Below are positions 10,359-34,622 of a stretch of DNA of 64,000 bases, one piece after another. Position 1 is the stretch's first letter. Every line of letters starts with the position of its first letter. A program made the translations under genes and the position numbers. A model generated the notes under the pieces. It was not told the origin of the DNA, did no database searches, and saw only the letters and a list, made by a program, of their open reading frames with translations. Source of the DNA: Bacteroidales bacterium (GTDB lineage: Bacteria > Bacteroidota > Bacteroidia > Bacteroidales > UBA4181); the NCBI GenBank assembly GCA_031547085.1, contig JAVBSH010000055.1:3249-67248 (forward strand), written 5' to 3'.

Positions 10359-10382
10359 GATTTTTTAATTTATAAATTTGAT

Positions 10383-10604: not shown

Positions 10605-10734
10605 TGTTTAGTTTGGTTAATCCGTGGAATTTGATTATTCCAGTGGGAAATTTTAGTTTAAATATTTACTTTTGTTCGGTCGGCGGAATTATTTTAGCCA
10701 ATCCGATCATAGGTATAACAAATCCCTTTAAAAA

Positions 10735-12450: not shown

Positions 12451-12552
12451 AATGTAAGAAGTATACAGGTGTAAAAATGATATCCGAATCGTTGTTCGGC
12501 GAAGTCTCCAGACTTCGTCGTGCTAAAAAGAAAACTCCTGCTTTCTACATGT

Positions 12553-12574
12553 GCAAGGCGAAAGCCTTGCTTTT
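12553..12574 (+). terminator. Rho-independent terminator (GNRA-loop hairpin plus T-run)
   Basis: GCAAGGC-GAAA-GCCTTGC followed by TTTT, about 100 nt after the TldD-like stop. A second hairpin (CGAAGTCT..AGACTTCG) lies at about 12500-12517. Confidence 0.6.
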
Positions 12575-12593
12575 AACGCTACGTCGAACAACC

Positions 12594-13814: not shown

Positions 13815-14023
13815 TGTGTTCTCGCCAATTGAATATTTTATGATTTTTTATGTTGTAACTTTCAGCAAATTCCAACATCTTTGCAAAGATAAACAAACTT
13901 ATAAGCCCTTTTTAACAAAGACAACAAACATGTATCATTGCCCCGGTAAAATGAAAAACAATTGCAATTTACCCTTTGGCTTATTTTTTGTACGGAAGCA
14001 TGTTGTCTGAAAGCAATCTATCA

Positions 14024-14758
14024 ATGAAAAGCGTTATCATCATTCCCACTTATAATGAGCAGGAAAACATCGAACGGATGATCCGCCGGGTGTTTTCCCT
14101 GCCACGCGATTTTCACCTGTTGGTGGTAGATGATAACTCGCCCGACGGTACGGCTGGCACTGTAAAACAATTGCGCAACGATTATCCCGATCAGCTTTTT
14201 TTGCTCGAACGTAGCGGCAAGCAAGGACTGGGAACGGCTTATATTGCCGGATTCGAGTGGGCGCTGGAACACGGCTATGATTACATTTTCGAGATGGATG
14301 CCGACTTTTCGCATAATCCCGACGACCTGGTGCGTTTGCTCGATGCATGTGTGGAAGATGGCGCTGACGTGGCCATTGGTTCACGCTACATTACGGGAGT
14401 AAACGTGGTTAATTGGCCCATGTCACGGGTATTAATGTCATATTGTGCATCGAAGTATGTGCGTTGGATCACCCGTATGAAAGTACGCGACACCACGGCA
14501 GGGTTCAAATGCTACAAACGCGAGGTGCTTGAAACAATCCCATTCGAAAGTATCCATTTTAAAGGCTATGCCTTTCAGATCGAAATGAAATTCACTGCCT
14601 GGAAGTTTGGCTTCAAGCTGGTTGAAGTACCCATCATCTTTACCGACCGTAGCGCCGGAACATCCAAGATGAGCGGCGGTATTTTCAACGAAGCATTTTG
14701 GGGCGTAGTGGTGATGAAATGGAAAAGCTTTTTCAGGAAATACAACAGAAAATCATAA
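14024..14758 (+). CDS. GT2 polyprenol-phosphate mannosyl/glucosyl-transferase (Dpm1-like)
   Basis: MKSVIIIPTYNEQENI, LVVDDNSPDGT, FEMDADFSH (DxD) and GSRY. The track start at 13976 is a TTG, and the first ATG at 14024 gives a canonical N-terminus. Confidence 0.85.
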   Translation: MKSVIIIPTYNEQENIERMIRRVFSLPRDFHLLVVDDNSPDGTAGTVKQLRNDYPDQLFLLERSGKQGLGTAYIAGFEWALEHGYDYIFEMDADFSHNPDDLVRLLDACVEDGADVAIGSRYITGVNVVNWPMSRVLMSYCASKYVRWITRMKVRDTTAGFKCYKREVLETIPFESIHFKGYAFQIEMKFTAWKFGFKLVEVPIIFTDRSAGTSKMSGGIFNEAFWGVVVMKWKSFFRKYNRKS

Positions 14759-20354: not shown

Positions 20355-22553
20355 TTAAGACATCGGTTCCGCCACCGTATATTGTGAATATACCAGATTA
20401 TAATAATCACCCTTCTTTTCCATTAAAGAATCATGGGTTCCAACTTCTGCTACAAAACCTTTATTTAACACAATGATTTGGTCGGCATTTTTTATTGTGC
20501 TGAGCCGGTGGGCAACAATAACAACCGTTCTGCCTTTGAAGGAATCGTTCAGGGCAGTAACAATCTTGCTTTCGTTTACCGCATCCAACGAGTTGGTGGC
20601 TTCATCCAGAAACAAAAAATCCGGATTGCGATATAATGCCCGCGCGATGAGCAACCGTTGTTTCTGTCCTCCACTAAGTCCCCTGCCTGTTTCGCCGATG
20701 ACTGTTTCATATCCTTTGGGCATTTGATTGATTTCTTCCTCGAACTGGGCAATTTGGCAAGCATTACGAACATTTTCGTAGTCGATCTTCTCGTCGTCGA
20801 GTACGATATTATTGAGAATCGTGTCACTGAATAATTTACCGTCTTGCATGACAACTGCACACATTTTACGCCATGTTCGCAAATTGATATTCTTTATGTT
20901 CATACCACCCATCAAAATTTCTCCATACGAGGGATTATAAAGCCTCAACAAAAGTTTTAAAAGAGTGGATTTTCCGCTGCCGCTTCCACCAACAATGGCC
21001 GTTACTTTGTTTTGTGGAATGGTTAGATGAACATATTGTAGTACCAGAGGTGAATTTTGATGGTATTGAAAACTGATATTTGACAACTTCAAATCCCTGC
21101 TTTCGGGAATAATATTGGTACTGCTGACAGACAGGGCTTCTTCCTCGTCATCCAATTGACGGATTTCGTTGATACGCAAAAAACTGATCTTTGCATATTG
21201 CGCCGAAATGATAAAATTAATGTACTGGCTCAGGGGACCATTCAACATGCCGATGATAAATTGCGTTGAAATCATCACACCAAAAGTGATTTCACCGGCA
21301 ATTACCGCTTTGGCGCAATAGAACACAATAGCCATATTTTTGATGTTCTCTATGAATTGAGCGCCCAAATTTTGGGTGTTGGTAACGGTTAATACCCTTT
21401 TGTTTACTTTGTAGAGCCGGGCCTGTATTTCCTCCCATTTCCAGCGACGATGTTTTTCGTAATTGTAAGTTTTGATATCCTGAATAGCAGACACCGTTTC
21501 CACCCAATAACTCTGGTCTTTGGAGACAATTTCAAAGTATTCCCAATCCAGCTTTTTACGTATATTCAGGAAGAGCAATACCCATAATACATAAAACACA
21601 GAACCAAAAAAGAATATGAAGAATATTATTTTATTATATATCAACAATATGACGCCGAAGATGACGAAAGTAAGCGTGGAGAATACCATTGCCAACGAAT
21701 TGTTCATGATAAAACTTCGTATCCGTTCGTGGTCGCGGGCGCGTTGCAAGATATCTCCCAATATCTTGTTTTCGAAAAATGTAACGGGCAATTTCATCAA
21801 CTTGATTAAGTAGTCTGAAATCAACGAAATATTTACCCGCGAGGTAATATGCAATAAAATCCAATCCCGTAAAATGTTGAATATCGTTATGCTGAACAGT
21901 ATGGAAATATTGCCTATAAGAATCATATTGATAAAACTTATATCCTGTGTTTTGATCCCCACGTCAATAACTGCTTTGGATATAAACGGCAGTACACCCT
22001 GCAACAAAGTAACAACCAGCATGATGACAAGCAGCAAGGTGAAACTTCGCTTATAGGGGACAAAATAGTTGAGCATATTGATCAGGCTTATCTGATGTAC
22101 CCGTCGCTCCTGGGCTGTCAGTTTGAAATCAGCCATCGGTTCAATTGCCAGTAAAACGCCTGTCTTTTCACCTTTTTTGTACCAGCCCTTTTTGAACTCT
22201 TGATGAGTATATTTTATTAACCCTTTCGAAGGGTCGGATACATAGATATACTTTTTTGTTGTATGGTAAACCACTACAAAATGATTGTCATTCCAATGGA
22301 TGATGGCCGGTAGAGGCACTTGAGAAATGATGTCGTCAAGGGTACACTTGATGGGAAGGCTTCTTAACCCGATACTTTCGGCTCCTGTCGTTAAATCCAG
22401 CAGGGAAACACCTTCTTTTGAGAGACCGCACTTATCCCGCAGGTATTGCAGGGAGTAAAACCGTCCGAAATGTTTGGCGATAATCTTGAGACTGGCGGGT
22501 CCACAATCTTGCGAATCCATTTGGTATTCTACGGGAAATCGTCTAAGTATCAT
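20355..22553 (-). CDS. Peptidase-containing ABC transporter (PCAT; C39 peptidase, TMD and NBD)
   Basis: 732 aa with a C39 triad (Q11..C17 in QMDSQDCGPASL, H91 in NHFVVVY, D107 in VSDPSKG). Also Walker A GGSGSGKST, signature LSGGQKQR, Walker B FLFLDEATN and H-loop VAHRLSTI. Confidence 0.93.
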   Translation of the reverse strand: MILRRFPVEYQMDSQDCGPASLKIIAKHFGRFYSLQYLRDKCGLSKEGVSLLDLTTGAESIGLRSLPIKCTLDDIISQVPLPAIIHWNDNHFVVVYHTTKKYIYVSDPSKGLIKYTHQEFKKGWYKKGEKTGVLLAIEPMADFKLTAQERRVHQISLINMLNYFVPYKRSFTLLLVIMLVVTLLQGVLPFISKAVIDVGIKTQDISFINMILIGNISILFSITIFNILRDWILLHITSRVNISLISDYLIKLMKLPVTFFENKILGDILQRARDHERIRSFIMNNSLAMVFSTLTFVIFGVILLIYNKIIFFIFFFGSVFYVLWVLLFLNIRKKLDWEYFEIVSKDQSYWVETVSAIQDIKTYNYEKHRRWKWEEIQARLYKVNKRVLTVTNTQNLGAQFIENIKNMAIVFYCAKAVIAGEITFGVMISTQFIIGMLNGPLSQYINFIISAQYAKISFLRINEIRQLDDEEEALSVSSTNIIPESRDLKLSNISFQYHQNSPLVLQYVHLTIPQNKVTAIVGGSGSGKSTLLKLLLRLYNPSYGEILMGGMNIKNINLRTWRKMCAVVMQDGKLFSDTILNNIVLDDEKIDYENVRNACQIAQFEEEINQMPKGYETVIGETGRGLSGGQKQRLLIARALYRNPDFLFLDEATNSLDAVNESKIVTALNDSFKGRTVVIVAHRLSTIKNADQIIVLNKGFVAEVGTHDSLMEKKGDYYNLVYSQYTVAEPMS

Positions 22554-22559
22554 GTCGAT

Positions 22560-23903
22560 TTATTGTTCAGTTTGATTTCGAATTTCATCACTTGTGACAG
22601 AATATTTCAAATTATCAAACAGTCTTTGAATTAATCGTCTGTTTTTCGTGATGATTTCGGCCATCCCTTTAGATTCGAAATTCAAATCCAATTTAGCACC
22701 ATAGTTTGTTGTGCTTCCATCGGGAAATTCTACGATAACCCTGTAAGCATCCATATCACTACGCTCCGTCTTTATCTTGCTTGTAATGTGCGAAATAGAT
22801 TTAACTACCCCTCTTATCGAACCGAACTCATCATAAGGATAATTATTTAATTTCACATTCACTTGCTGCCCGATTTCCACCTTTCCAGAGCCATACGAAG
22901 GAATCATCACTTCGCCAACAAGTTCATTTTTCAGCGGAATAACGGAATACAATTCCTGTCCGGCCTGTACAAAACTGTTTTGCCTCCAGAAATCCAAATA
23001 TTCCAGTTTACCGTCAATCGGGGATACAGTTACAAAATTTTGTTTCCAAACAGCAATACGGTTGATTAATTCGTTTTTTCCGGTGATTAATTCTAACCAA
23101 AACCGGTGAACGGTTTCTTTTTCTTCCGTTTTCAACTGTTCTATATCCATAGTATTCTTTTTTATCCTCGACTGAATGGACGATAATTCGGTTTGTAAAT
23201 TGTGGTATGCTTCAGTTGCTGTCAAGTGTTCGGCTTTTTGCCTGACATACTCCGCCTCGCTCATTGCTTTTTGCACAAAAATGATACTGTCTTTGGAAAG
23301 CTGCTCCGAAGAAATTTTCAATATCTCGTTCCTTATGGATATTTCATTTTGAATGTTACTCAAAATTTTATTGTCCATTTCAATCTGGCTCCTTAAACTG
23401 TTACAGCGTATCCCATAAGTATTGGAGCTCATGAAATAGTGGTATTGTTGATGCGCTTTATAAAAATTGCTGTACGCAGGGCTGATCTCACCCAATTCCA
23501 ATTGTTCGTTTAAAGGAATTTCGGATATTTTCGTAATATCGCAGGAATTGATGATGGAATCAACCGTGTTCGCATCCCGGTAATCTGTGGAACTGTATAT
23601 ATAGGAAATGACAGTGCCTTTTGTTACCGTGTTGCCATCTTCTTTCAGTAAATGCAATCTCCCGTTGTTGCTGGAAACAAGCCGCACAGGCGCTGTCAAC
23701 GCGGTAATGGATATCTGGCCGTCAACCGTATCGTGGTACCTGACTATAAAACCAATGGTGAAAATAATGGCAATCAATATGATGGTAATGATGGCGGCGT
23801 AAATAGAAGTTTGGGTCGGCATACGGTCGATGATGGATTGTACCTCTTCGCTCCGTTCATCATCCTCTATATGGCCTGTATTTTCATTTTCAATTGTGCT
23901 CAT
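22560..23903 (-). CDS. HlyD-family membrane fusion protein
   Basis: 447 aa with a single N-terminal TM segment, a long coiled-coil centre and a beta-barrel-like C-terminus. It starts 7 nt upstream of the PCAT gene. Confidence 0.85.
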   Translation of the reverse strand: MSTIENENTGHIEDDERSEEVQSIIDRMPTQTSIYAAIITIILIAIIFTIGFIVRYHDTVDGQISITALTAPVRLVSSNNGRLHLLKEDGNTVTKGTVISYIYSSTDYRDANTVDSIINSCDITKISEIPLNEQLELGEISPAYSNFYKAHQQYHYFMSSNTYGIRCNSLRSQIEMDNKILSNIQNEISIRNEILKISSEQLSKDSIIFVQKAMSEAEYVRQKAEHLTATEAYHNLQTELSSIQSRIKKNTMDIEQLKTEEKETVHRFWLELITGKNELINRIAVWKQNFVTVSPIDGKLEYLDFWRQNSFVQAGQELYSVIPLKNELVGEVMIPSYGSGKVEIGQQVNVKLNNYPYDEFGSIRGVVKSISHITSKIKTERSDMDAYRVIVEFPDGSTTNYGAKLDLNFESKGMAEIITKNRRLIQRLFDNLKYSVTSDEIRNQTEQ

Positions 23904-23919
23904 TTCCTATTTGTTTAAA

Positions 23920-25407
23920 TTAATGAAGTAACACTTCCGTTAATTCCTTATTTTCTACAAAATCGAACAAGGTCTTGTTACGCAAATTGTAATAACCGGC
24001 CCAAACCTCTTTCATTGCTGTGTAATACCTGTTCATGGAAGCAAATACTTCCTTCTGGGCGATTCCTAATTCGTAAATGGATAATTTTCCCAAATCAAAT
24101 TTACTGACAGAAACCTCGTATTGTTTCATTGCCAGTTCGAAAGATGAACGGGCAATAGTCATCAGGTTCACGTTGTGATTATAATTGTTGACTAATTCCT
24201 TCAAATCGTTGTAAAAAAGGATGTATTCCCGGTCGATTTCCATCAAGGAAATTTCATAATTATTTTGTGCTATTTTGAAGTTGTTTTTATTAACACCCCA
24301 TTGAAAAACAGGAATTTGTAACCCGATGGTCAGTGATTGCTGCGATGCCATGTTTTTGTAAGCGTCTCTAAATACAGGAGCGTATTGATTCGTACCCAAG
24401 TTAAAACTGATGTTACTCGTAAAACGGTTCTGGTATTTGGCATTGTGGATTTGCTTTTCGGCTTCTATACGTCTTATTTGCTGCCCCAAAGCGAAGGAAT
24501 TATTATTTTCGGCATATTCCATTACCATGTCGAAATTCAAAAAATCCGGAAGGTCGAAATCAGGGCTTTCAATTGCATAATGTTTAAAAATATCAGCTAT
24601 GCCAAGGTAGTTCAACAAACTGCGAAGTGAAACTTCATATTCCTTTTTATAGTTTTCGGAAGCAAAACGGTCGTTTACCGCCTGTATTTTCATTTGTAGA
24701 TATTCATTTTCCGCCATTCGCCCGTTGTCGAATTTTATAGTACTTGCCTGTAGAAGTGTATCCGAAATGGCTTCGCTTTTCAAAGCAATATCCATTGACA
24801 TCTTTACCAAAAACAAATCCATGTAAAGCAAAATTACTTCACGTTGAATATCCGTGATACTGTTGCAATAATCCTTTGCCGCCTTGATATTCCTTTTTTG
24901 CTCAATATTTTTCGTAAACTTGTAATCAGCTGCGGAACCGCCAAATAACTTTTGACTGTAACCAATGGAAAACGGACGGGTATTAAAGCTCCTTCTCTCC
25001 TCGTTGAATTCATTGAGCATGTTCACGTTGCTTCCGATATTGACGCTGCCACCTGTGATGCCGATCTTTTGCGTGACTGATACGCCCATGCTGCTGTTGT
25101 TTGAAAAATCATCAATATAAGAATAACTGCCATCGGTTGGACTTTGCAATACCTTGTATGAACGATTGAAACTGGCGGGGCTGATATTAATGGCAACAGA
25201 AGGGAGGAATCCCCTTTTGTAATTTTCAAAACTGTAATTGGCATTATCATAATTGAGTTTTGCTTTGATAGCTCCTGGCGCGGCAAAACAATATTCGGTC
25301 AGTATTTTATTCAAGCTTATCTCAAAAGTTTGACAATTAATTTTGCTATTGCATACGAGCAATAGCAAAATTGTTGAAAAATATTTACAAAACCTTGTCA
25401 GGTTCAT
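23920..25407 (-). CDS. TolC-family outer-membrane efflux protein
   Basis: 495 aa with a signal peptide and a two-fold repeat of helical/beta segments typical of OEP proteins. It is the first gene of the TolC-HlyD-PCAT operon. Confidence 0.8.
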   Translation of the reverse strand: MNLTRFCKYFSTILLLLVCNSKINCQTFEISLNKILTEYCFAAPGAIKAKLNYDNANYSFENYKRGFLPSVAINISPASFNRSYKVLQSPTDGSYSYIDDFSNNSSMGVSVTQKIGITGGSVNIGSNVNMLNEFNEERRSFNTRPFSIGYSQKLFGGSAADYKFTKNIEQKRNIKAAKDYCNSITDIQREVILLYMDLFLVKMSMDIALKSEAISDTLLQASTIKFDNGRMAENEYLQMKIQAVNDRFASENYKKEYEVSLRSLLNYLGIADIFKHYAIESPDFDLPDFLNFDMVMEYAENNNSFALGQQIRRIEAEKQIHNAKYQNRFTSNISFNLGTNQYAPVFRDAYKNMASQQSLTIGLQIPVFQWGVNKNNFKIAQNNYEISLMEIDREYILFYNDLKELVNNYNHNVNLMTIARSSFELAMKQYEVSVSKFDLGKLSIYELGIAQKEVFASMNRYYTAMKEVWAGYYNLRNKTLFDFVENKELTEVLLH

Positions 25408-25418
25408 ATAAAATGTTT

Positions 25419-25426
25419 TATTTTTG
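25419..25426 (+). promoter_or_regulatory. Candidate Bacteroidota -7 promoter box (TAnnTTTG) for the plus-strand island genes
   Basis: TATTTTTG lies 28 nt upstream of the ATG at 25454, in the 46-bp divergent gap. A second match, TAATTTTG, is at 25439-25446. Confidence 0.3.
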
Positions 25427-25453
25427 CAAAAATAGAAATAATTTTGAATTGAA

Positions 25454-26398
25454 ATGACGGATATATCTAAACTGGTTGGTCATATTCTATCAAATGTCTG
25501 TTTAGTAGACACTACAGGCTTATATTACGGGAAAGCAGGAATATCTTTAGCCCTGTTTGAGGCCTCCGGGTATCTTCAAGATGAAGATATGGAAGATAAA
25601 GCGTTCAATATTCTTCGGGAAGCATTAATTCTCAAAAGCGGGGATTTTAGTTTTGAAAATGGATTATCCGGAATTGGGTACGTTTTGTGTTACCTGATGG
25701 AGAATAAATTCATAGAGGCTGATTTTGATGAAATATTCGGCGAACAGTATGAAAAAACTGTAAAAAGCCTCGAAGATATAGAAAAAAAACCTGAAAGACT
25801 GTTGAACACATTACAGGTTATCTACTTTCTATCTTCGGTAAGGAAGATAAAACCAAATGATGAACGGCTGCAAAAAATCATCAAAAAAATTTTTGAAGGC
25901 TTGGAATTGTTTTTCATAGTCCAATTTCAGGATTTTATTGACATTCACTACATCAATGACAAAATGGCGGTTTTGAGGATTTATGAAACTTACCTTAAAT
26001 TGGTCAATTTTGCGGGTTACACTCACTTTTCGCATTCGTTATTAGAAAATTACGTCGATTTATACCGAACGGGTAGAGCGGTAAGTTCAATAGCTATCGG
26101 ATATTATTTAGGGATGTTGTTAAGAAACAACGCGATAACAGGCTATGACGATGTTGTAAAAAATCATATAGAGAACGGAATCAGGGATATACACGAAGAT
26201 ATGCTTTCACCAGGAGAAAAAGTAGATGTCACGAAATTATTAACTGATGTCAAAAACAACGGAATCGCGCAGCTGCCGGATACAAAGATCGATGATCTGC
26301 CAAAAAACGTAGGCTTGGGTTCCTGTTCCTTAGACTACAAGAAAGGGTTGTCGCGGCTTCTCTTATTTTGTGTAAACAAACAAGCCGAACTTTTATAA
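25454..26398 (+). CDS. LanC-like (alpha/alpha-toroid repeat) protein lacking recognisable zinc-ligand motifs
   Basis: 314 aa. The N-terminal repeats LYYGKAGISLALFE and ENGLSGIGYVLCYL resemble LanC GxxG helix-repeat motifs. No WCxG or CHG motifs were seen. Assignment is tentative. Confidence 0.45.
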   Translation: MTDISKLVGHILSNVCLVDTTGLYYGKAGISLALFEASGYLQDEDMEDKAFNILREALILKSGDFSFENGLSGIGYVLCYLMENKFIEADFDEIFGEQYEKTVKSLEDIEKKPERLLNTLQVIYFLSSVRKIKPNDERLQKIIKKIFEGLELFFIVQFQDFIDIHYINDKMAVLRIYETYLKLVNFAGYTHFSHSLLENYVDLYRTGRAVSSIAIGYYLGMLLRNNAITGYDDVVKNHIENGIRDIHEDMLSPGEKVDVTKLLTDVKNNGIAQLPDTKIDDLPKNVGLGSCSLDYKKGLSRLLLFCVNKQAELL

Positions 26399-26408
26399 TA
26401 TTCAAATT

Positions 26409-27230
26409 ATGAGTGAAATATCAGTCATCCTACCAGTATGTAACCATGAAAAATATGTACATGATACCATAAAAAGTATTCTGAATCAATCTTTTGAGGA
26501 TTTTGAACTCATTCTCGCCGATGATGGCTCAACAAACGATTCATTATCCGTTGTCAAATCATTTGAAGATAGCCGCATTCGTATCATAGCCCGTAATGAT
26601 TTACACAATCGCACCAACGCATTAAATGCAGGTATAGAATCAGCTTCGGGTAAATACATAGCAATGATGGAAGCAAATCATATCATGCACGTTGACCGGT
26701 TGAAAATTCAACATGCCTTTATGGAGGCAGAACCTTCAATTACCGTATGTAGTGCACATATAAAATATTTTGATGCTCAAAAGCAGGAAAATAACGCTAT
26801 CAAACTACGAGTGCCCGGTGGTTTGATAGAAAATCCGCTGTTGTTCTTTTTAAGTGGTAATTGTATCATACACCCAACTGTGATGATACGAAATCAATTT
26901 TTAAAGAAGCACCAATTGCTATACGAAAATTATCCCGACGCGGAAAACTTTAAACTTTGGACTGAAATTGCCAAACGCGGAGGACAATTTCATATGGATA
27001 CGCAACAGTTGCAGTACGGTCAAGTAACAAACAAACAAGATGATGGGCTAAAACGGCAATCATCCGATCATATTATCAACGAAATAGTTGAATTTCTGGC
27101 AAAAAGGCATCCTGAACTGGAAGTTATCCTGGCAAATTTCAAAAAATTGCAGGATAAAGAAACGATGACACACTTGGATATAGTCGGATTTTTCCATCAT
27201 TTCTTCACGAAAAATAAAGATAAGTTATGA
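26409..27230 (+). CDS. Family-2 glycosyltransferase with a non-canonical DxD region
   Basis: 273 aa with ISVILPVCNHEKYVHDTIKSILNQSFEDFELILADDGSTNDS (GT-A N-terminus). The expected xDxDD is replaced by YIAMMEANHIMH. Confidence 0.8.
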   Translation: MSEISVILPVCNHEKYVHDTIKSILNQSFEDFELILADDGSTNDSLSVVKSFEDSRIRIIARNDLHNRTNALNAGIESASGKYIAMMEANHIMHVDRLKIQHAFMEAEPSITVCSAHIKYFDAQKQENNAIKLRVPGGLIENPLLFFLSGNCIIHPTVMIRNQFLKKHQLLYENYPDAENFKLWTEIAKRGGQFHMDTQQLQYGQVTNKQDDGLKRQSSDHIINEIVEFLAKRHPELEVILANFKKLQDKETMTHLDIVGFFHHFFTKNKDKL

Positions 27231-27469
27231 CCGGAATACATATCGGAAAATTAATACGCACCAAATTGGAAGACGATAGACGCTCGGTGGAATGGCTCGC
27301 AAATAACATTGGCTGCGTACGAGACAATGTTTACAAGATACTTAAGAAAGAATCCATTGACACTGAACTTTTAATGCGCATATCCGTGGCGCTTGAAACG
27401 AATTTCTTCCGCTACTATTCTGATATTTATTATGATAAGATGAAAAAGAAAACAGACAATACTGATTAG
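27227..27469 (+). CDS. Small XRE-like helix-turn-helix regulator
   Basis: 80 aa with IGKLIRTKLEDDRRSVEWLANNIGCVRDNVYKILKKESIDTELLMRISVALETNFF. Its ATG overlaps the GT2 stop (ATGA). Confidence 0.65.
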   Translation: MTGIHIGKLIRTKLEDDRRSVEWLANNIGCVRDNVYKILKKESIDTELLMRISVALETNFFRYYSDIYYDKMKKKTDNTD

Positions 27470-27479
27470 GAAAGGTCAC

Positions 27480-27525
27480 ATATACAAAATATATACATTT
27501 TGTATATATTTTATATACAGTATAT
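27480..27525. promoter_or_regulatory. Palindrome array (five ATATAC/GTATAT hexamers); candidate operator
   Basis: ATATACAAAAT-ATATAC-ATTTTGTATAT forms 11-bp perfect arms (27480-27490 and 27497-27507). ATATAC-A-GTATAT follows at 27513-27525. It lies between the HTH gene stop (27469) and the 171-aa gene start (27611). Confidence 0.45.
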
Positions 27526-27610
27526 TGATTTCACTTATTGCGATTTAACTTAATTTTGAATCACTAAATTTTAATATTTTGTTGTATAACCTTAATAAAA
27601 AATCGATATC

Positions 27611-28126
27611 ATGAAGAACTTGACAAAAAAGAGCCTTGATGAATTGGCAAAAACGATGAGTTTGATCCCAGAAGATGAAAGGGATGGTTATTGGGGAATG
27701 TATAGTAATGACTGCTTTTGGAGATGCGTTTCTTATTTAGCGACAGGTGATCGTAGTGAAACTGCAGCTGCAAGGTTTGCAGAATCTTATTGGAGTGGAG
27801 AATTAGGATACTATGGTGCAATGAATCACCTATCTGTTAACCAAGGAGATATGTCATTAGACAGTGCTATATCTTTTAAAAATTCTTATGCCGGTTCCAT
27901 CAACATGAGCAGCATCTGCATTCAACTTGTGGGCAACAGTGTTGGGCATGCGCTTGTTTATCAGGGAGCGGGTAAGAAGAATATACTTGGTCAGACACAC
28001 GATGTCTATTATTATTATGATCCACAAAACGGGACAAATGTCGAATCGTTAATTAAACACAAAACTATAACAGAGTTAGAAGCTTCATCGAATTCATCCG
28101 CTTCGTCGAATTCGTCAAATCCATAG
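27611..28126 (+). CDS. Leader-bearing small protein with a C39/papain-like Cys-His-Asp motif set and a Ser/Asn tail
   Basis: 171 aa. The N-terminus MKNLTKKSLDELAKTMSLIPEDERDGYWG resembles a bacteriocin-type leader helix. C35 lies in SNDCFWRC, H113 in VGHALVY and D137 in YYYDPQNG. The transporter's own C39 domain has the same pattern (DCGP, NHFVVVY, VSDPSKG). The tail is SSNSSASSNSSNP. Confidence 0.6.
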   Translation: MKNLTKKSLDELAKTMSLIPEDERDGYWGMYSNDCFWRCVSYLATGDRSETAAARFAESYWSGELGYYGAMNHLSVNQGDMSLDSAISFKNSYAGSINMSSICIQLVGNSVGHALVYQGAGKKNILGQTHDVYYYYDPQNGTNVESLIKHKTITELEASSNSSASSNSSNP

Positions 28127-28151
28127 GTCTTAAAAAAAATAAAAAAAAACA

Positions 28152-29339
28152 ATGAATATACTTTTGATTTTGATTTTAAATTGTTTTTTGGCGAATGGGA
28201 TAAATGAGGGTTCAAAAAAAACAAAGAGCTATAAGCAAGAGACAAGTTCAAGGATTGTCAATGCAAGAGCTACTTCTGTATACGTATCCAACAACAATGT
28301 GTATATTGTTGGATATCAACACTCTGAAGACAAAAAAACAGTTGCTAAGCTTTGGAAAAACGGTACTGAGTATGACCTTACCGATGGGACTAATGATGCT
28401 TTCGCCTTGTCTGTTTTTGTATCCGGTAATGATGTATATGTGGTGGGTTACGAAAATTCCGATTCTCATTTTTTTAGGCCCACGGCTGGTTTGATTGTGA
28501 AGTCATTTGTTGCCAAATTATGGAAAAACGGTATCGCGCAAAATCTCAGTAATAAAGATGTTAAATATTCGATGGCGCGATCTGTTTTCGTATCCGGTGA
28601 TGATGTATACGTAGCTGGAATGGAAGTTGAACCCAACGAGAAAGATTCATTGTTCACAGTCGCTAGATTATGGAAGAACGGTGTTGTACAAAATCTTTCT
28701 GATAATTGTATGGGTATTGCCAGATCTGTTTTTGTATCCGGCAACGATGTGTATGTGGCGGGTAGTGGAAAATATGAATGTTCACCGAACGCTAAATCAT
28801 ATGTTGCTAGATTGTGGAAAAATGGCATAGCACAGAACCTTAGTGACGGAGCTAAAATGACTTGGGCCCATTCAGTTTATGTCTTCAATGATGATACTTA
28901 TGTAGCAGGAATTGAATATCCAGAATCTGATTTAAATAAAGAAACTCCGGTATTGTGGAAAAACGGTATTGTCCAATATATGAATATTGCCAACATAACT
29001 AGTAATACAGGGTGTGACAATGTTACAGGTTCGGCCAATTCCATTTGCGTTTCTGAAAGTGGGGATGTGTACGTGGTCGGCTTCATAAATTGCGGTAACA
29101 TTTATTCTGTATTGTGGAAAAACGGCATTGCACAGCTTATCAATCAGGATGGTACATTTCAGATGATTGAGGAGTTGGCTCGTAATAACTCTGTTTTTGT
29201 ATCTGGAGAAGATGTATACATAACGGGAAGTGAACATGGGGTAAAAATTGCTGCCATCTGGAAAAATAATATCTTGCAAGAGCTTACAGAGTATCATCCA
29301 GATGAAATAATGATTATTCGGCAACAGTTATCTGAATGA
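28152..29339 (+). CDS. Seven-repeat LWKNG protein (probable 7-bladed beta-propeller), N-terminal hydrophobic anchor/signal
   Basis: 395 aa with seven copies of (A/V)xLWKNGxxQxL...A(R/H)SVFVSGxDVYVxG (LWKNG x6 plus IWKNN; DVYVxG-type x7). The N-terminus is MNILLILILNCFLANG. Confidence 0.7.
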   Translation: MNILLILILNCFLANGINEGSKKTKSYKQETSSRIVNARATSVYVSNNNVYIVGYQHSEDKKTVAKLWKNGTEYDLTDGTNDAFALSVFVSGNDVYVVGYENSDSHFFRPTAGLIVKSFVAKLWKNGIAQNLSNKDVKYSMARSVFVSGDDVYVAGMEVEPNEKDSLFTVARLWKNGVVQNLSDNCMGIARSVFVSGNDVYVAGSGKYECSPNAKSYVARLWKNGIAQNLSDGAKMTWAHSVYVFNDDTYVAGIEYPESDLNKETPVLWKNGIVQYMNIANITSNTGCDNVTGSANSICVSESGDVYVVGFINCGNIYSVLWKNGIAQLINQDGTFQMIEELARNNSVFVSGEDVYITGSEHGVKIAAIWKNNILQELTEYHPDEIMIIRQQLSE

Positions 29340-30490
29340 ATATTCTTTTTCTCTCAAGATACGATCCTACAGTGATTAATAACTGGTCGGGTACCCTATA
29401 TTACATGTATCATAAATTAAAAGAAAAACATCATGTTGAAATCATAGGAACTGAAATACTGCATCAACTCACTTTTTTTTCAAATGGAAATTTCCATAAT
29501 GAGTTTTTCATATATAGCAATCGATATGTAAAAAATATTGGACTTCTACTATCAGAACGTATAAATATTGTTAAATACGATCTGGTTTTTTTGGGCGATT
29601 TAATTTTTTCCTCTTTAGATATTTGTATACCTTTTGTTCATCTCAGCGATATGACTTATGAGCAGGTAAATATATATTTAAAAAAATCAGACGAGAGAAA
29701 TATTGAACCTTGTATGTGTCTCGAGAAATTAATACTTAACAACTACTCAAAAATCATTTATACTTCCGAATGGATAAAACAAAAAGCAATAGAAACCTAT
29801 AATATCGACCCCAATAAAATTGCGGTGGTTGAATTGGGTGCGAATATACCAACACCAACAGATTATTCTATTGATATTGATACGGATATTTGCCGGTTGG
29901 TTTTCATTGGAAGAAACTGGGAGAAAAAAGGTGGCGATAAACTCTTGCAAGCATACCGGATATTGAAAACAGAAGGATTCCCATGTTCACTTACGATTAT
30001 CGGTTCCACACCAAAAGAAATTCCGGATGCCGACGAGGATTTAACCATTATTCCATTTCTTAATAAAGAGAAGAAAGAGCATTTGAATAAATTGTGTAAA
30101 ATACTTTCAAAGGCGCACTTTCTTGTTTTGCCAACCGAATTTGATGCTTATGGCATTGTTTTTTGTGAAGCGTCGGCTTACGGTGTTCCGTCTATAGCCT
30201 CAAATGTTGGCGGAGTTGGGCAACCTGTACGCGAGGGGAAAAATGGGTTCTTACTACCGCCCGATGCAACAGCACAGGACTATGCCGAAAAAATCAAAAG
30301 CGTTTTTAACGACCGGGAAAAATATTTCAAGTTACGTGCTTCCTCCCGCTGTGAATTTGAAACGCGGTTGAACTGGGATGTTTGGGGCGAACGGGTGAAT
30401 CAGATACTGGAGGATACTGTAAAAGGGTGGAAAGGACAAAAAGAAATGTGTGAAAACAATAGACTTATGTCATTTGATATTGAAAATTAA
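29336..30490 (+). CDS. GT4-type (GT-B) glycosyltransferase
   Basis: 384 aa with FLVLPTEFDAYGIVFCEASAYGVPSIASNVGGVGQPVREGKNGFLL (EX7E-type region). Its ATG overlaps the stop of the repeat protein (ATGA). Confidence 0.85.
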   Translation: MNILFLSRYDPTVINNWSGTLYYMYHKLKEKHHVEIIGTEILHQLTFFSNGNFHNEFFIYSNRYVKNIGLLLSERINIVKYDLVFLGDLIFSSLDICIPFVHLSDMTYEQVNIYLKKSDERNIEPCMCLEKLILNNYSKIIYTSEWIKQKAIETYNIDPNKIAVVELGANIPTPTDYSIDIDTDICRLVFIGRNWEKKGGDKLLQAYRILKTEGFPCSLTIIGSTPKEIPDADEDLTIIPFLNKEKKEHLNKLCKILSKAHFLVLPTEFDAYGIVFCEASAYGVPSIASNVGGVGQPVREGKNGFLLPPDATAQDYAEKIKSVFNDREKYFKLRASSRCEFETRLNWDVWGERVNQILEDTVKGWKGQKEMCENNRLMSFDIEN

Positions 30491-30548
30491 TGTATTTAAA
30501 ATGCTCCGTAACAATTAATTTGACATAATCTCTAATATAGCTAAATTA

Positions 30549-31712
30549 ATGAATATAATCTTTCTTGCAAGGGATGACCCTAAAGACATTCACAATTGGT
30601 CGGGAACCTTGTATCATATTTATCATAAATTAATAGAAAAACATCATGTTGAAATCATAGGTACTGAGTTGTTCGATCAACTTTTTGTTTTCAGGAATGG
30701 AAATTTTCCCCAAGATTTTTTCTTGCTTCAGGATCGATACGTGAAAAATCTTGGCAGGTTGTTATCGGAACGTATCAATGCACTCAAATTTGATTTGCTT
30801 TTTTTCGGAGATTTATTTTTTATCCCTTTAGACATTGACATCCCTTTCGTTCATTTCGGCGATCTGACTTACGAACAATTAAAGGTATATTATGTAAAAG
30901 AAGATGAGCGGGATATAGAGCCTTGTATCAACCTTGAGAAAATATTACTGAACACATCTTCTAAAATTATCTATTGTTCCAAATGGATAAAAAACCGGGT
31001 AGTTGAAATCTATAACATTAACCCCAATAAGATTGACGTGGTTGAAATGGGTGCAAATATTCCTACACCGCAGAACTATTCAATCGAAATCAATATGGAT
31101 GTTTGCCGGTTGGTCTTTATTGGAATAAATTGGAACAGAAAGGGTGGTGACATTGTTATGCAGGTATTTCAACATCTGAAAAAGGAAGGATTTCCTTGTA
31201 CGCTTACCATTATTGGTTCATCTCCAAGGAATAGACCAGAAGACAATCATGGCCTTACTGTTATTCCATTTCTTGATAAAGCCAAGAAGGACCACTTGAA
31301 GGTCTTAAACGACATTCTTAATGAGTCGCATTTTCTTGTTTTACCTACACGCTTCGATGCTTATGGTATCGTTTTCTGTGAAGCATCCGCGTATGGAGTT
31401 CCATCAATTGCGGCGGATGTTGGCGGAGTTGGACAGCCTGTATGCGAAGGGAAAAACGGTTTCTTACTACCACTTGATGCAACAGTACAAGACTATGCTG
31501 AAAAAATCAAAAGCGTTTTTAACGATCGTGAAAACTATATCCGGTTACGTGCATCTTCACGCCGGGAATTTGAAACGCGATTAAATTGGGATGTTTGGGG
31601 CGAACGGGTGAATCCTATATTGGAAAGTACTGTAAAAGAGTGGAAAGAACAAAAAATGCGTGAAGATAATTCAAGTCAAATAATAAGCACAATTAAAAAT
31701 GGAAAAAATTGA
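30549..31712 (+). CDS. GT4-type glycosyltransferase (tandem paralogue)
   Basis: 387 aa, collinear with 29336-30490 and roughly 70 percent identical by eye. The C-terminal 100 aa are nearly identical. Confidence 0.85.
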   Translation: MNIIFLARDDPKDIHNWSGTLYHIYHKLIEKHHVEIIGTELFDQLFVFRNGNFPQDFFLLQDRYVKNLGRLLSERINALKFDLLFFGDLFFIPLDIDIPFVHFGDLTYEQLKVYYVKEDERDIEPCINLEKILLNTSSKIIYCSKWIKNRVVEIYNINPNKIDVVEMGANIPTPQNYSIEINMDVCRLVFIGINWNRKGGDIVMQVFQHLKKEGFPCTLTIIGSSPRNRPEDNHGLTVIPFLDKAKKDHLKVLNDILNESHFLVLPTRFDAYGIVFCEASAYGVPSIAADVGGVGQPVCEGKNGFLLPLDATVQDYAEKIKSVFNDRENYIRLRASSRREFETRLNWDVWGERVNPILESTVKEWKEQKMREDNSSQIISTIKNGKN

Positions 31713-31716
31713 AATC

Positions 31717-32139
31717 ATGATGAAAAAAAAATCTTGGATAACAGTCGCTTGCTTTGCAACACTGTTTTTGGCATGTGTTTCATTCAAGACTCATACCAAT
31801 TCCGTAAACAATATAGACCAAATTATTGGAGTGTGGAAAATTGTTTCTCCTGAGTTAAGCGGAGAAGGTGAACAGGAAAATATTAAAATTATCACAAAAG
31901 ATCGTTTTATTTGGACGCATACAATCAACAGCATGATAATATTTTCGCTCGGAGGCACCTATTCTTTTGATGGAGAAACATATACTGAAATTATTAAATT
32001 CGGGACACCAAACCAGCGAACCGCATTTGGAAAAAAGGTAGTTTATAAAGTCCGGTTCGAGGACAAAAAAATGCATATCATTGGGGGGTACGAAAATGAT
32101 CATCGAGTTTTCAATGAAATATGGGAACGAATTGAATAA
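31717..32139 (+). CDS. Lipocalin-like small lipoprotein
   Basis: The start is MMKKKSWITVACFATLFLACVSF (lipobox FLAC). The IIGVWKIVS and RFIWTHT pattern is typical of Bacteroidales lipocalin-like domains. It begins 4 nt after the GT4 stop. Confidence 0.6.
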   Translation: MMKKKSWITVACFATLFLACVSFKTHTNSVNNIDQIIGVWKIVSPELSGEGEQENIKIITKDRFIWTHTINSMIIFSLGGTYSFDGETYTEIIKFGTPNQRTAFGKKVVYKVRFEDKKMHIIGGYENDHRVFNEIWERIE

Positions 32140-34036
32140 CAGTTACATTTCCGAAAATAGAGTAGACCTTTCGGTCATTGTTCCGGTATTCAATGCGGAA
32201 AAATTTTTACCTGCATGTATTGATTCATTGATACATCAGGGTGATCTTAGCCTTGAGATTATTCTGGTGAATGACGGTTCTACAGATCGTTCAGGAGAAA
32301 TTGCCGATGAATATGCCAATAAAGACAGTCGGATAAGGGTGATTCATCAAGGAAACGGGGGCGCCTCGGCGGCTCGTAATACCGGATTGGAACTGGCACA
32401 AGGTGAATATATTGCTTTTGTTGACAGCGATGATTGGGTTAAAGAAAAATCATTGTGTGAATTATATCATGAAGCGATCAAGCATCAGGCAGATATAGTG
32501 ATGGGCAAGATTGAGGTTTTGAATCAAAGTGAAAATATGTCTCTTCATCTTGAACCTGCTCCCAAGGGAATCAAGGACATTCCGTCAGGTAAAGAATGCT
32601 TCATCAACCTCGTTAAAGCAAAGGCTTATTCACCTATGGCATGTAATTACATATACCGTAGGGAATATATTGAAACAATACAAGCCCGTTTTGAAGAAGG
32701 CATCATGGCTGAAGATGAATTGTGGACTTGCATCGTTCTGTGCCAAGCAAAAAAGATGGTTATTGTTGACATTACTTTTTATTATTACCGCCTGCGAGAA
32801 GGTTCGGTCATGCACACAACAAATCCCAAACGGCGTTTAAAATCTTTGTTCCGGGTCACTGACCAATTGTTTGAATTTACTGATCGTTTCGACTTTAAAG
32901 GAGAAGACGGAGAATTGAAAAATTGGTTGTATGTTAATATCTATAGGATTTATTCCATAACCTTTACTGTACTTTCACGCATAAAGGACAGTTCAATTAT
33001 TGTGCCGGCAAATCATTTGGATCGTTTTTGGAGAAATTGCCCGGAAATGATGCCCGAGCCGCAAAAAGCCTGCAATGAATATTTCAGAGTTTCAGAAGCC
33101 GGTTTTAAAAAATATACTGATTGGCGTACATCGGAATGGGTGGCATCCATTGGTTCTCAAATTTCAACCGGAAAGAAACTAATGTTGGTATACAATACTC
33201 TCTGGAACGGGGAATTAACCTTAAAAATCGGGGATATTCCTGAAAAATGGCTTATTACCACTGACCGGCGCTATTTCCAGCAAGCAGATGCGGTTGTATT
33301 CCATCTTCCCGACCTGCGACAGGTACTGGACATTGATTTAGACAAGCCGGAAGGACAGATATGGGTTGGCTGGTACTTAGATTCAGAAAAAAATTATCCA
33401 TGGATTAGGTCGCCGGAAATGAAGGAAACATTCGACCTCTGGATGAGTTACCGTCAGGATGCTGACGTGGTGTATCCATATTACCAGTACGGATATCCCA
33501 AACTATTCATGCAACAAATTATTCATGCTCAAAAACAGGATAAAGCATGCTTGTTTGTTCCTAACCAACTAAACCATGCTTTTATGGAGCTGATGAAGCT
33601 TACTGCAATAGATGTTTTTGGAATGGGATACAACAACCAACAACCGCATTCGTTTCGCAGAACTGAAAAGTTAGATATTTATAGAAAATATAAGTTTGTC
33701 ATCGCATTCGAAAATGCGATTGACATAGACTATATTACGGATATTTTTTATGACCCGCTCATTGCCGGTTCAGTACCCATCTATTTAGGAGCACCCAATA
33801 TTAATGACTTTGCACCGGGCGACCATTGTTTTGTAGATGTACGGCAATTTGAGAATCCCAAAGCATTAGCAGATTTCATCAATACCTGTTATGATGATGA
33901 ACAACTGTATGCTAATTTTTTTGAATGGAAAAACCAACCATTAAAAGAGTCCTTTTTACAAAAAATAGAAAAGCAGAAAGATCACCCTTTAGTACGTTTA
34001 TGTCGGCAGGTTGAAGAAAAAATCAACCAAATATAA
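32096..34036 (+). CDS. Bifunctional glycosyltransferase: N-terminal GT2 fused to a C-terminal GT10-like fucosyltransferase domain
   Basis: The GT2 part has LSVIVPVFNAEKFL, LVNDGSTDRS and YIAFVDSDDWV. The C-terminal part has KFVIAFENAIDIDYITDIFYDPLIAGSVPIYLGAPNI, matching the alpha-1,3-fucosyltransferase FENS..YVTEK motif. The start is uncertain (TTG 32081, ATG 32096 or ATG 32114). Confidence 0.8.
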   Translation: MIIEFSMKYGNELNNSYISENRVDLSVIVPVFNAEKFLPACIDSLIHQGDLSLEIILVNDGSTDRSGEIADEYANKDSRIRVIHQGNGGASAARNTGLELAQGEYIAFVDSDDWVKEKSLCELYHEAIKHQADIVMGKIEVLNQSENMSLHLEPAPKGIKDIPSGKECFINLVKAKAYSPMACNYIYRREYIETIQARFEEGIMAEDELWTCIVLCQAKKMVIVDITFYYYRLREGSVMHTTNPKRRLKSLFRVTDQLFEFTDRFDFKGEDGELKNWLYVNIYRIYSITFTVLSRIKDSSIIVPANHLDRFWRNCPEMMPEPQKACNEYFRVSEAGFKKYTDWRTSEWVASIGSQISTGKKLMLVYNTLWNGELTLKIGDIPEKWLITTDRRYFQQADAVVFHLPDLRQVLDIDLDKPEGQIWVGWYLDSEKNYPWIRSPEMKETFDLWMSYRQDADVVYPYYQYGYPKLFMQQIIHAQKQDKACLFVPNQLNHAFMELMKLTAIDVFGMGYNNQQPHSFRRTEKLDIYRKYKFVIAFENAIDIDYITDIFYDPLIAGSVPIYLGAPNINDFAPGDHCFVDVRQFENPKALADFINTCYDDEQLYANFFEWKNQPLKESFLQKIEKQKDHPLVRLCRQVEEKINQI

Positions 34037-34076: not shown

Positions 34077-34508
34077 TTATTTAAACAAGGAATCAACAAA
34101 CTCATATTTATTAAACACCAACAGGTCCTCCATTTTTTCACCAACCCCGATATATTTAACCGGTATTTTGAACTGGTCGGAAATTCCCAGGATAACGCCG
34201 CCTTTGGCCGTGCCGTCAAGTTTGGTGAGCGCCAGTGCGGTTACTTCAGTAGCCAGGGTAAATTTTTTGGCCTGTTCGAATGCATTTTGTCCGGTAGAAC
34301 CGTCGAGTACCAGTAAAACTTCGTGGGGCGCTTCGGGTATCACCTTTTGCATCACTTTCTTGATCTTCGAAAGCTCATTCATCAGGTTCACTTTGTTGTG
34401 CAAACGTCCGGCAGTGTCAATGATCACCACGTCGGCATCGTTGGCTTTGGCTGAACTGATGGTATCGTAAGCCACCGATGCGGGATCGGCCTTTTCGGGT
34501 GTTTTATC
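34077..34508 (-). pseudogene. ftsY: 5'-truncated ftsY (SRP receptor) remnant: C-terminal ~143 codons only
   Basis: It reads ..ADPASVAYDTISSAKANDADVVIIDTAGRLHNKVNLMNEL...LTKLDGTAKGGV...YIGVGEKMEDL. This covers SRP-GTPase G3-G5 but has no G1 P-loop. The frame closes at a TAA (complement of 34509-34511). Only 114 bp remain before the GH92 stop. Confidence 0.8.
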
Positions 34509-34622
34509 TTAACTGATAATGATTTGTAATGCCTTCAAATGATTGTACAAGTGTTTATTCACTTTGCTTATGCGGATGTTTTGCTAAAGTGCCGGCAACA
34601 AAAGTTAATTTTCAAGAATTCC

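Follow-up and report, generated by a model that had tools for sequence, protein, structure and literature searches.

The closest described relatives of the locus analyzed here are the export systems of class II microcins and other bacteriocins (CvaAB-TolC, PCAT1, ComA, LahT), the glycocin clusters (sublancin SunA/SunS/SunT, glycocin F) and the polymorphic toxin systems (contact-dependent inhibition or CDI, the type VI secretion system or T6SS, and Rhs). Class II microcin export combines a peptidase-containing ATP-binding cassette (ABC) transporter (PCAT) having an intact Gln/Cys/His/Asp set of residues with HlyD and TolC components; the cargo carries an N-terminal leader of ~30 residues that ends in Gly-Gly, and cargo and immunity genes lie beside the exporter. 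Glycocin clusters pair a PCAT with a soluble family 2 glycosyltransferase (GT2) and a leader-bearing product. In polymorphic toxin systems, a conserved N-terminal trafficking part is joined to interchangeable C-terminal domains, an adjacent partner gene co-varies with the toxin gene, and orphan or decayed modules occur. We found these traits in an island at positions 20355-34036 of a 64,000-nucleotide stretch of contig JAVBSH010000055.1 from a Bacteroidales bacterium (the whole stretch is referred to as the window), or in the sister loci of this island. The island had been described earlier from its sequence (the original prediction) as a possible secretion-plus-glycosylation system for antagonism or surface modification, of a composition matching no described system. 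A literature search bore out the latter point, as the system as such was not described there and was represented by in-silico flags only.

We propose that the island encodes type I secretion of polymorphic toxins through a PCAT, with immunity proteins that act outside the cytoplasm and an accessory module that glycosylates the cargo. This is the best reading of the data and a probable one. The conservation described below shows that the exporter is coupled to a glycosyltransferase (GT) module and an antagonistic role of the locus family is strongly indicated, but a target of the GTs in the cargo, which the original prediction implied, was not established. What the original prediction did not foresee is a polymorphic toxin logic, in which the island belongs to a family whose members carry many types of cargo. 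It may work like class II microcin export joined to that logic, possibly with a glycocin-like modification step, and by their defining features it is not a lanthipeptide cluster, a glycocin cluster or a capsule locus.

The exporter genes are on the minus strand and are those originally predicted. They encode a PCAT of 732 aa (20355-22553), an HlyD-type membrane fusion protein of 447 aa (22560-23903) and a TolC-type outer membrane factor of 495 aa (23920-25407). The PCAT consists of a C39 peptidase domain, an exporter domain with six transmembrane (TM) helices and a nucleotide-binding ATPase domain (Pfam Peptidase_C39, 1.5e-34; ABC_membrane, 8.8e-29; ABC_tran, 6.1e-31), and it matches PCAT1 (4ry2) end to end (E = 8e-106). 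The C39 residues Q11, C17, H91 and D107, read directly from the protein, are present and are invariant in 16 relatives. The fusion protein matches Pfam HlyD_3 and NCBIfam type_I_hlyD and has an N-terminal TM segment at residues 28-60, while the outer membrane factor matches Pfam OEP in two stretches and NCBIfam type_I_sec_TolC. By homology, the three proteins form a dedicated tripartite type I secretion system. This arm faces the plus-strand arm of LanC-like, GT and cargo genes across a divergent intergenic region of 46 bp (25408-25453), as had been noted.

Exporter and GT genes were found to be parts of one conserved unit. A scan of species-representative genomes with an alignment of the LanC-like protein gave 78 loci. 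Among 36 LanC-like-anchored loci, where all counts are limited by contig ends, a GT2 gene adjoins the LanC-like gene in 28, 29 loci have leader-bearing cargo, 19 the PCAT, 19 HlyD, 16 a family 4 GT (GT4) and 15 TolC. A recurrent co-directional array runs in the order TolC, LanC-like, GT2, variable region, GT4, HlyD and PCAT; it is carried by Tannerella forsythia ATCC 43037, Prevotella, Paludibacter, Dysgonamonadaceae, Proteiniphilum and Bacteroides pyogenes, with PCATs 72-79% and GT4s 51-62% identical to those of the window. The inverted exporter arm is a variant common to the window and the sister loci L002 and L088. The PCAT of the window is 72-91% identical to those of sister loci, and three homologues of its 171-aa cargo protein (see below) already had locus contexts with the same genes. 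Since this first sample had been chosen via the LanC-like gene, we also searched metagenomes with the PCAT C39 domain. This gave 27 metagenomic loci that have no less than 12 kb of sequence and whose PCAT is at least 60% identical, and they contain a LanC-like gene in 19/27, a GT in 18/27 and a leader-bearing open reading frame (ORF) in 19/27 cases; for PCATs less than 55% identical the figures drop to 3/12 and 0/12. A count by BLAST alone of PCAT-anchored loci lacking LanC-like or GT genes was rejected because divergent versions of these genes turned up in most such loci with Pfam and an iterated hidden Markov model (HMM). Since the LanC-like and PCAT anchors recover the same cluster, exporter and GTs travel together, and their independent travel, which would have made the island two unrelated loci, is contradicted. 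In the species-representative set, no LanC-like match exceeded ~50% identity and hence no close relative carrying the island was present. A degraded system was seen in Bacteroidia bacterium MS502-39 (L005/L021): its LanC-like gene is broken into two ORFs and its GT4 truncated, and there is a DDE transposase but, within 10 kb, no PCAT, while two Cys-His cargo genes with Glug-repeat partners are still intact.

The first gene of the accessory module encodes the LanC-like protein of 314 aa (25454-26398, plus strand). The earlier assignment fell just below the Pfam cutoff (LANC_like, 22.3 bits against 23.2), but the fold itself is backed by a confident structural model (pLDDT 90.8), an α/α-toroid whose top Foldseek matches in the PDB are LanCL2, LanCL1, MadC, CuvL and NisC (probability 1.0, TM-score ~0.6). 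The zinc ligands of LanC cyclases (Cys…Cys-His) and their catalytic His are missing, as an alignment of 29 homologues contains no conserved Cys or His. Neither Pfam nor NCBIfam detected a dehydratase in the island (LanB or the domains of LanM, LanKC and LanL), and it holds no small precursor rich in Ser, Thr and Cys. The lack of zinc ligands and of a dehydratase excludes zinc-dependent LanC cyclase chemistry. Homologues of this protein form ~115 clusters, almost all from Bacteroidales. One of them, in a Dysgonamonadaceae metagenome-assembled genome (L013, 6392-10933), is part of a single ORF of 1513 aa that fuses a fucosyltransferase-like region, DUF2264, a GT2 and a LanC-like domain.

These results bear on the possibility that the island is a chance neighborhood of a bacteriocin-type exporter and a polysaccharide GT cluster, or else a classical cluster for a peptide made on ribosomes and modified after translation (RiPP) such as a lanthipeptide or glycocin. 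The divergent orientation in the window could mean two units, and genome mining with BAGEL-type tools picks up LanC and 'GlyS' genes of Bacteroidales (PMC10352776). That study found LanC-like genes without zinc ligands beside carbohydrate-active enzyme genes in Bacteroidales, with long 'precursors' that are followed by another gene, and read them as RiPP clusters. Its BGC3-5 share with our loci the LanC-like protein without the C…CH zinc motif near carbohydrate-active enzymes and Gly-Gly-type leaders, and BGC5 also shares the long 'precursors' with another gene after each. BGC3-5, however, center on radical S-adenosylmethionine (rSAM) or pseudo-rSAM enzymes and were interpreted as sources of peptide natural products, without recognition of a toxin-immunity logic, whereas the island has no rSAM gene. 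Most relatives of the island carry one co-directional array with GTs between TolC and HlyD-PCAT, and the association persists with the PCAT anchor. The zinc ligands, a dehydratase, a thiol-disulfide oxidoreductase and a small precursor are all missing, and the sole leader-bearing ORF is 171 codons long. Unlike the glycocin clusters, the island lacks a small two-helix peptide with a disulfide-stapled helical core, adds GT4, GT10 and LanC-fold proteins, and has a Gram-negative host and a tripartite exporter. Chance proximity or a classical RiPP cluster is already contradicted by the conserved arrays and the PCAT-anchored loci as judged from sequence, and we consider it highly improbable.

The variable region of the loci holds one to four cassettes, each with a gene for a leader-bearing protein of 150-250 aa and a gene for a protein with a signal peptide. 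The leader common to the cargo of these cassettes (MKKLTKKSLDELAK…GG) was found by a leader HMM on 54 ORFs in sister loci, most of them ending in GG. Unrelated proteins carry this leader with a clear double glycine, for example …TIIGG/AFYF and …HYVGG/GDG (the slash marks the junction). Among the sister cargo, Pfam matched Tox-MPTase2 (two), CHAP (two), Amidase_5 and DUF5675. Many cargo proteins have in common a module of the form GDG…NPYT…W.GGYVEG between the leader and a variable C-terminus, and in some relatives a Cys-His domain follows this module or a Gly/Ser/Tyr linker behind a GG leader. In these longer relatives the succession of leader, linker or module, and Cys-His domain is a polymorphic toxin architecture. 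All 41 cargo genes examined have an ORF within 400 bp downstream, and its product has a signal-peptide-like N-terminus in 36/41 cases by a crude rule and in ~40/41 by eye. Homology among cargo and homology among partners co-vary (odds ratio 48, Fisher p = 5e-41 for 40 cassettes), although the p value overstates the co-variation since the cassette pairs are not independent. The family thus has a common trafficking region, interchangeable domains and an adjacent co-varying gene, the marks of polymorphic toxin-immunity systems, with immunity itself predicted. The exporter would recognize the common N-terminal leader of ~30 residues and secrete small protein toxins, for which the evidence is strong.

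The comparison with known systems also brings out what is particular to this family. As in CDI, T6SS and Rhs systems, interchangeable domains (Tox-MPTase2, CHAP, Cys-His) follow a conserved N-terminal part, but the trafficking device here is a double-glycine leader and a PCAT, and since the cargo are free small proteins, no cell contact would be needed. In the available portions of Zhang et al. 2012 (PMC3482391), Tox-MPTase2 appears under another mode of trafficking (TcdB/TcaC), and the account of Tox-PL-C39 mentions no PCAT or type I trafficking. Class II microcins, on the other hand, are peptides of less than 10 kDa, whereas the cargo here are enzymes of 150-250 aa (peptidases, amidases). 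The family also differs from class II microcins in having several polymorphic cassettes per locus, large Sec-exported putative immunity proteins, and LanC-fold and GT genes inside the operon.

In the sister locus L088, a decayed cargo gene (4700-5000, minus strand) retains its leader (…TKKSLDELVMTINVISEDERDNYWGM…) and has lost its toxin domain, and it is followed by an intact orphan partner of 292 aa. In the same locus (2930-3140, minus strand), a duplicated 3' end of a helix-turn-helix (HTH) gene and a 36-nt palindrome (TATCCATAATGGATACTTTTGTATCCATTATGGATA) lie ahead of the next cassette. The layout suggests that cassettes may be duplicated or replaced as units of HTH end, palindrome, cargo and partner. 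A palindrome (…GGATACTTTTGTATCC…) analogous to that of the window lies upstream of each cargo cassette in L088. The window's own palindromes had been predicted and were confirmed at 27480-27525 as AT-rich nested inverted repeats (I1-I5) with the core TATATACATTTTGTATATA, a candidate operator. The probable HTH regulator before them (80 aa, 27227-27469, plus strand) is present as a gene, but its HTH_26 match is below the Pfam cutoff (17.8 against 22 bits); a clear homologue, recognized when the two sequences were read side by side, occupies the same position in L088. The HTH protein and the palindrome upstream of the cargo gene would probably control the cassette.

We also considered that the leader-bearing proteins may be hydrolases or signals that the producer uses for itself, in cell-wall remodeling, nutrient release or host interaction, with the partners as substrates, anchors or receptors. 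The toxicity of these proteins rests on prediction, housekeeping autolysins, too, have CHAP and metallopeptidase domains, and the partners are large and varied (leucine-rich repeat, Glug, erythromycin-esterase-like and propeller proteins). Against this, each locus has multiple divergent cassettes, a decayed cargo remnant stands beside an intact orphan partner, and the strict co-variation of cargo and partner is typical of toxin-immunity systems. Tox-MPTase2, moreover, was defined from polymorphic toxins. A role in the producer's own physiology is therefore quite improbable. The partners of NPYT/GGYVEG cargo (L008, L007, L009, L020, L028 and L034), signal-peptide proteins of 570-630 aa, match the erythromycin-esterase family (PF05139; 4.9e-13 for the L008 partner), an unexpected fold for an immunity protein.

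The cargo of the window is a protein of 171 aa whose leader (residues 1-30, 27611-27700, plus strand; MKNLTKKSLDELAKTMSLIPEDERDGYWGM) scored 71 bits with the leader HMM; besides its gene, the HMM found no leader-bearing ORF in the window. The leader proposed originally is thus homologous to known PCAT leaders of the double-glycine type, but its junction is G29-M30 rather than Gly-Gly. Within the Cys-His family, the junctions form a series, …VGG/YDPNDCWWRC, …IVGA/YDNDCFWRC and …YWGM/YSNDCFWRC. Those of the window's subclade end in GM, GQ, GK or GR, and those of other clades of the same domain family in GG or GA. This series argues that the window protein descends from a true double-glycine cargo. 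The C39 domain would cut after Gly-Gly in most relatives, and cleavage at Gly-Met in the window is uncertain. In one sister locus, L003 of Porphyromonadaceae bacterium KH3CP3RA (8338-14198), the cargo comprise three HExxH proteins that have GG leaders and a single Cys-His protein whose junction is GM.

The remainder of the protein (27701-28126) is a Cys-His(-Asp) domain with a Ser/Asn-rich tail. Pfam, NCBIfam and single-sequence searches of the PDB returned nothing for the 171-aa protein. A first search gave 17 homologues, all of 150-190 aa and all from Bacteroidales or metagenomes, and an exhaustive profile search raised the family to 198 representative clusters. A check proposed with the original prediction, whether its homologues co-occur with PCATs and GTs in other genomes, came out positive. 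In the family alignments, conservation is seen at the N-terminus (MKKLTKKSLDELAKTM), in the motif D-C-(F/W)-W-R-C, at a single His and in Asp-Pro-Gln, and in the window protein the conserved residues are C35 and C39, H113 and D137. In the structural model (pLDDT 79.5), a helix begins at Cys35 and is followed by more helices and then by a β-sheet that bears His113. A domain profile of 37 sequences matched the C39 peptidase toxins StbD-CT/CdiA (8ssm, 8ssk; E = 1.9e-5) and the chain of a PAAR-like effector (9l5u; E = 2.7e-3). StbD-CT has its catalytic Cys183 ahead of Cys187, His258 and Asp275, and both StbD-CT and Cpe1 cleave GyrB and ParE after Gly-Gly. The order Cys-x3-Cys…His…Asp is the same in the window cargo. 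In contrast to C39 domains, its Cys is ~5 residues away from the N-terminus of the mature protein and has neither their strand nor their Gln upstream. The domain thus resembles C39-type toxins such as StbD-CT and Cpe1 and is predicted to be a papain-like peptidase toxin. We suggest that the toxin of the window consists of the leader and a papain-like Cys-His-Asp domain of ~140 aa, a distant kin of StbD-CT and Cpe1, for which the data give partial proof. The putative catalytic Cys is separated from the junction by only five residues, and for this reason the precursor may be inactive in the cytoplasm of the producer as long as it is uncleaved. One protein from the representative search (P0246, 172 aa) begins with ~50 residues that are the N-terminus of the LanC-like family and continues straight into the Cys-His toxin domain; it is either an assembly chimera or the result of a gene-fusing deletion.

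The gene after the cargo gene encodes a signal-peptide protein of 395 aa (28152-29339, plus strand) with seven (L/I)WKN(G/N) repeats at a period of 46-56 aa, in agreement with the repeats originally described. It sits where sister loci have the post-cargo signal-peptide protein. From this position alone, the LWKNG protein is presumed to be the cognate immunity protein, and its site of action would be the periplasm or the cell surface. The signal peptides of partners and the cell-wall hydrolase domains among the cargo suggest that the toxins act in the periplasm of the target. The idea that LWKNG proteins are a dedicated immunity family was dropped, as the repeats belong to a huge generic family, and a Pfam 'RIP' match on this protein proved spurious, since it lacks a significant stretch and stems from the composition of the repeats. 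Members of the repeat family elsewhere are fused to type IX secretion sorting tails, to Big_2, PKD and IPT domains, to a TIR domain or to a Ser/Thr kinase.

Five GT domains, the number originally predicted, are encoded in the plus-strand arm by a GT2, two GT4 and a GT2-GT10 fusion. The soluble GT2 (GT2a, 273 aa, 26409-27230; Glycos_transf_2, 1.4e-26; no TM segment) is the conserved partner of the LanC-like protein. GT4a (384 aa, 29336-30490; Glycos_transf_1, with GT4-conflict at 35.9 bits) belongs to the conserved core, and its orthologues in sister loci, located between the cassettes and HlyD-PCAT, are 51-72% identical; its match to NCBIfam TIGR04157 'glyco_rSAM_CFB' is weak (43 bits, cutoff 400 bits). 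GT4b (387 aa, 30549-31712; Pfam) is a tandem paralogue with 68% identity to GT4a over 384 aa. The fusion (32081-34036, probable start 32096, 646 aa in the NCBI call) joins a GT2 to a fucosyltransferase-type GT10 (Glycos_transf_2, 1.9e-40; Glyco_tran_10_N, 8.2e-15; Glyco_transf_10, 1.2e-27). No hydrophobic segment was found in the LanC-like protein, GT2a or the fusion, and one moderate stretch (residues 83-101) in each GT4. Contrary to the original view of this arm as one set, the fusion, the second GT4, the lipoprotein gene between them and the LWKNG gene are lineage-specific accessories outside the core. For four of the products (the fusion and the lipoprotein, LWKNG and HTH proteins), the first 84 loci yielded no homologue, and the HTH homologue is that of L088. 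Other lineages showed similarity only to the N-terminal GT2 of the fusion, in GT2 proteins of 620 aa beside LanC-like genes. The loci differ in how many GTs they have and of which type. An extra WsaF-like GT4 is found in some lineages, and the core GT4 is followed by GT4b and GT2-GT10 in the window, by a GT2 and a second LanC-like gene in L002 and by Gly_transf_sug in L088.

The accessory module of LanC-fold protein, GT2 and GT4 would accordingly be what travels with the exporter, with GT4b and GT2-GT10 added in the window. We propose, as the weakest step of the model, that the module most likely glycosylates the leader-bearing cargo in the cytoplasm prior to export and that the LanC-fold protein would serve as a peptide-binding adaptor. 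Cytoplasmic glycosylation followed by PCAT export would be the logic of glycocin biosynthesis. The cargo is favored as the target because the enzymes are soluble, their genes form part of the secretion operon, all cargo have only the leader in common, and the LanC fold handles peptides in every characterized case.

Alternatively, the module may spare the cargo and build or alter an envelope glycan of the producer, such as the core of its lipooligosaccharide (LOS) or lipopolysaccharide (LPS) or a different surface glycoconjugate, so as to mask a receptor or block re-entry of the toxins. LPS-glycan genes are co-acquired with MACPF toxins in Bacteroides, which offers an analogy. GT number and type differ between close relatives as they would for a surface glycan under diversifying selection, and wzx/wzy are not needed for LOS-type glycans. 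However, a general shield looks redundant where each cargo has its own co-varying partner, and the module lies inside the secretion operon, between TolC and HlyD-PCAT, across several Bacteroidales genera and families. The original prediction had set the island apart from ordinary polysaccharide loci, and indeed its 12 proteins include no Wzx/Wzy, ABC polysaccharide exporter, initiating transferase or sugar-nucleotide domain; a flippase and a ligase are likewise missing from the island. Given also the peptide handling by characterized LanC folds, an envelope target is a serious contender but rather unlikely.

A more specific and doubtful version of cargo glycosylation is that the LanC-fold adaptor recruits the GTs to build a strain-specific oligosaccharide on the toxin, which after PCAT export baits the SusC/SusD importers of competing Bacteroidales and so enters the periplasm, where the signal-peptide partners would confer immunity. 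We know of neither a leader-guided pathway of protein glycosylation nor a bacteriocin that enters by a glycan 'Trojan horse', and this version, if true, would be both.

Several observations weigh against the proposal of PCAT-exported, glycosylated toxins with extracytoplasmic immunity. The first concern the junction. The window cargo has Met at -1 of the leader, where double-glycine leader substrates have Gly-Gly, Gly-Ala or Gly-Ser at -2/-1, and C39 domains normally require Gly, Ala or Ser at -1. In L003, which ends at the contig end, a single PCAT is visible and cargo with GG and GM leaders are both present, so that one transporter presumably meets both junctions. A second group concerns the toxin domain. 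Foldseek with the full-length cargo model gave weak matches to the calpain core (E ~0.08) and to eIF5A/CarD, none better than 0.05, which are consistent with a papain-like fold in the model and no proof of it. The significant profile match to C39 toxins spans only ~40 residues around His…Asp-Pro, the His-Asp half. An hhalign comparison of the cargo family with the C39 domains of the locus's own PCATs was not significant (E = 0.19), although it did align the His…Asp-Pro motif. Cpe1 and StbD are characterized as acting in the cytosol, and StbI, the partner of StbD, co-purifies with its toxin when co-expressed in Escherichia coli; the partner of the window cargo, like its counterparts in the family, carries a signal-peptide-like N-terminus rather than being a cytoplasm-acting immunity protein. 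Periplasmic action therefore fits poorly with a Cpe1-like cytosolic target of the window domain. As to the partner, the LWKNG repeats are generic, with more than 4000 homologues in Bacteroidota, of β-propeller type and apparently unnamed. The nearest of these occur in unrelated contexts and are not linked to cargo. The last group concerns glycosylation. The closest solved relatives of the GTs are polysaccharide, glycolipid or small-molecule enzymes and not peptide glycosyltransferases of the SunS type; for the GT2 they are chondroitin synthase, GalT1 and SpsA, with no peptide glycosyltransferase among 17 matches. In addition, no acceptor motif common to the cargo classes was found, and no result shows a glycan on any cargo. 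The relatives of the GTs and the lack of a common motif speak at the same time for an envelope glycan.

All 12 ORFs originally named for the island are present at their coordinates, and Pfam upholds the domain calls for the exporter proteins and the GTs. The plus-strand genes are tightly packed as described, with ATGA overlaps at 27227 and 29336 and close junctions at 31699-31717 and 32081-32139. The lipoprotein gene (146 aa, 31699-32139, plus strand) exists and its product has a hydrophobic N-terminus with a Cys, which makes it a probable lipoprotein, but its lipocalin-like assignment comes down to a DUF4488 match below the cutoff (E = 3.9e-4, 20.7 bits against 27). The dip in G+C is real but far milder than the 25-35% against 45-55% once estimated by hand. 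The island has 37.6% G+C and its flanks 44.2% and 43.5%; G+C at third codon positions is 0.32-0.47 in the island and 0.42-0.54 in the flanks, and 39% of the island's 60-nt lines are at or below 35% G+C.

The surroundings of the island are an ordinary Bacteroidales chromosome with BamA, TldD, serine dehydratase, GH92 and a SusC/SusD locus. The flanking gene taken to be PD40/Omp85 encodes a 1128-aa protein with weak PD40 matches but no Omp85 match. At the borders of the island we found neither flanking direct repeats nor a tRNA. A 3' fragment of an SRP54-type GTPase gene of ~140 codons, with in-frame stops before it, adjoins the right edge (34077-34512, minus strand), and the window has no second copy. 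It is probably a piece of ftsY and looks like a scar of the rearrangement that brought the island in. Further away, the most AT-rich kilobase of the window (60001-61243, 29.6% G+C) has a SusC/SusD pair on one side and, on the other, a protein of 281 aa with a Peptidase_S24 (LexA/CI-like) domain. A CotH-kinase-domain protein of 722 aa (46401-48569, minus strand) adjoins a GH43 gene, with a SusC/SusD pair ~6 kb on.

In the gut and the mouth, the coexistence of Bacteroidales strains is shaped by the antibacterial proteins that they secrete; as far as we know, the weapons described comprise T6SS effectors, MACPF toxins, bacteroidetocins and few more. If our proposal is correct, a further route would be represented by this locus family, in which polymorphic enzyme toxins undergo contact-independent export via a PCAT type I system. 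Cultured carriers (T. forsythia ATCC 43037, Prevotella conceptionensis, Proteiniphilum acetatigenes and B. pyogenes) make direct tests possible. The findings raise the questions of what a zinc-less LanC fold does without a dehydratase and why a protein exporter consistently carries glycosyltransferases. Answers might also account for the LanC-like 'orphans' flagged in Bacteroidales by genome-mining tools.

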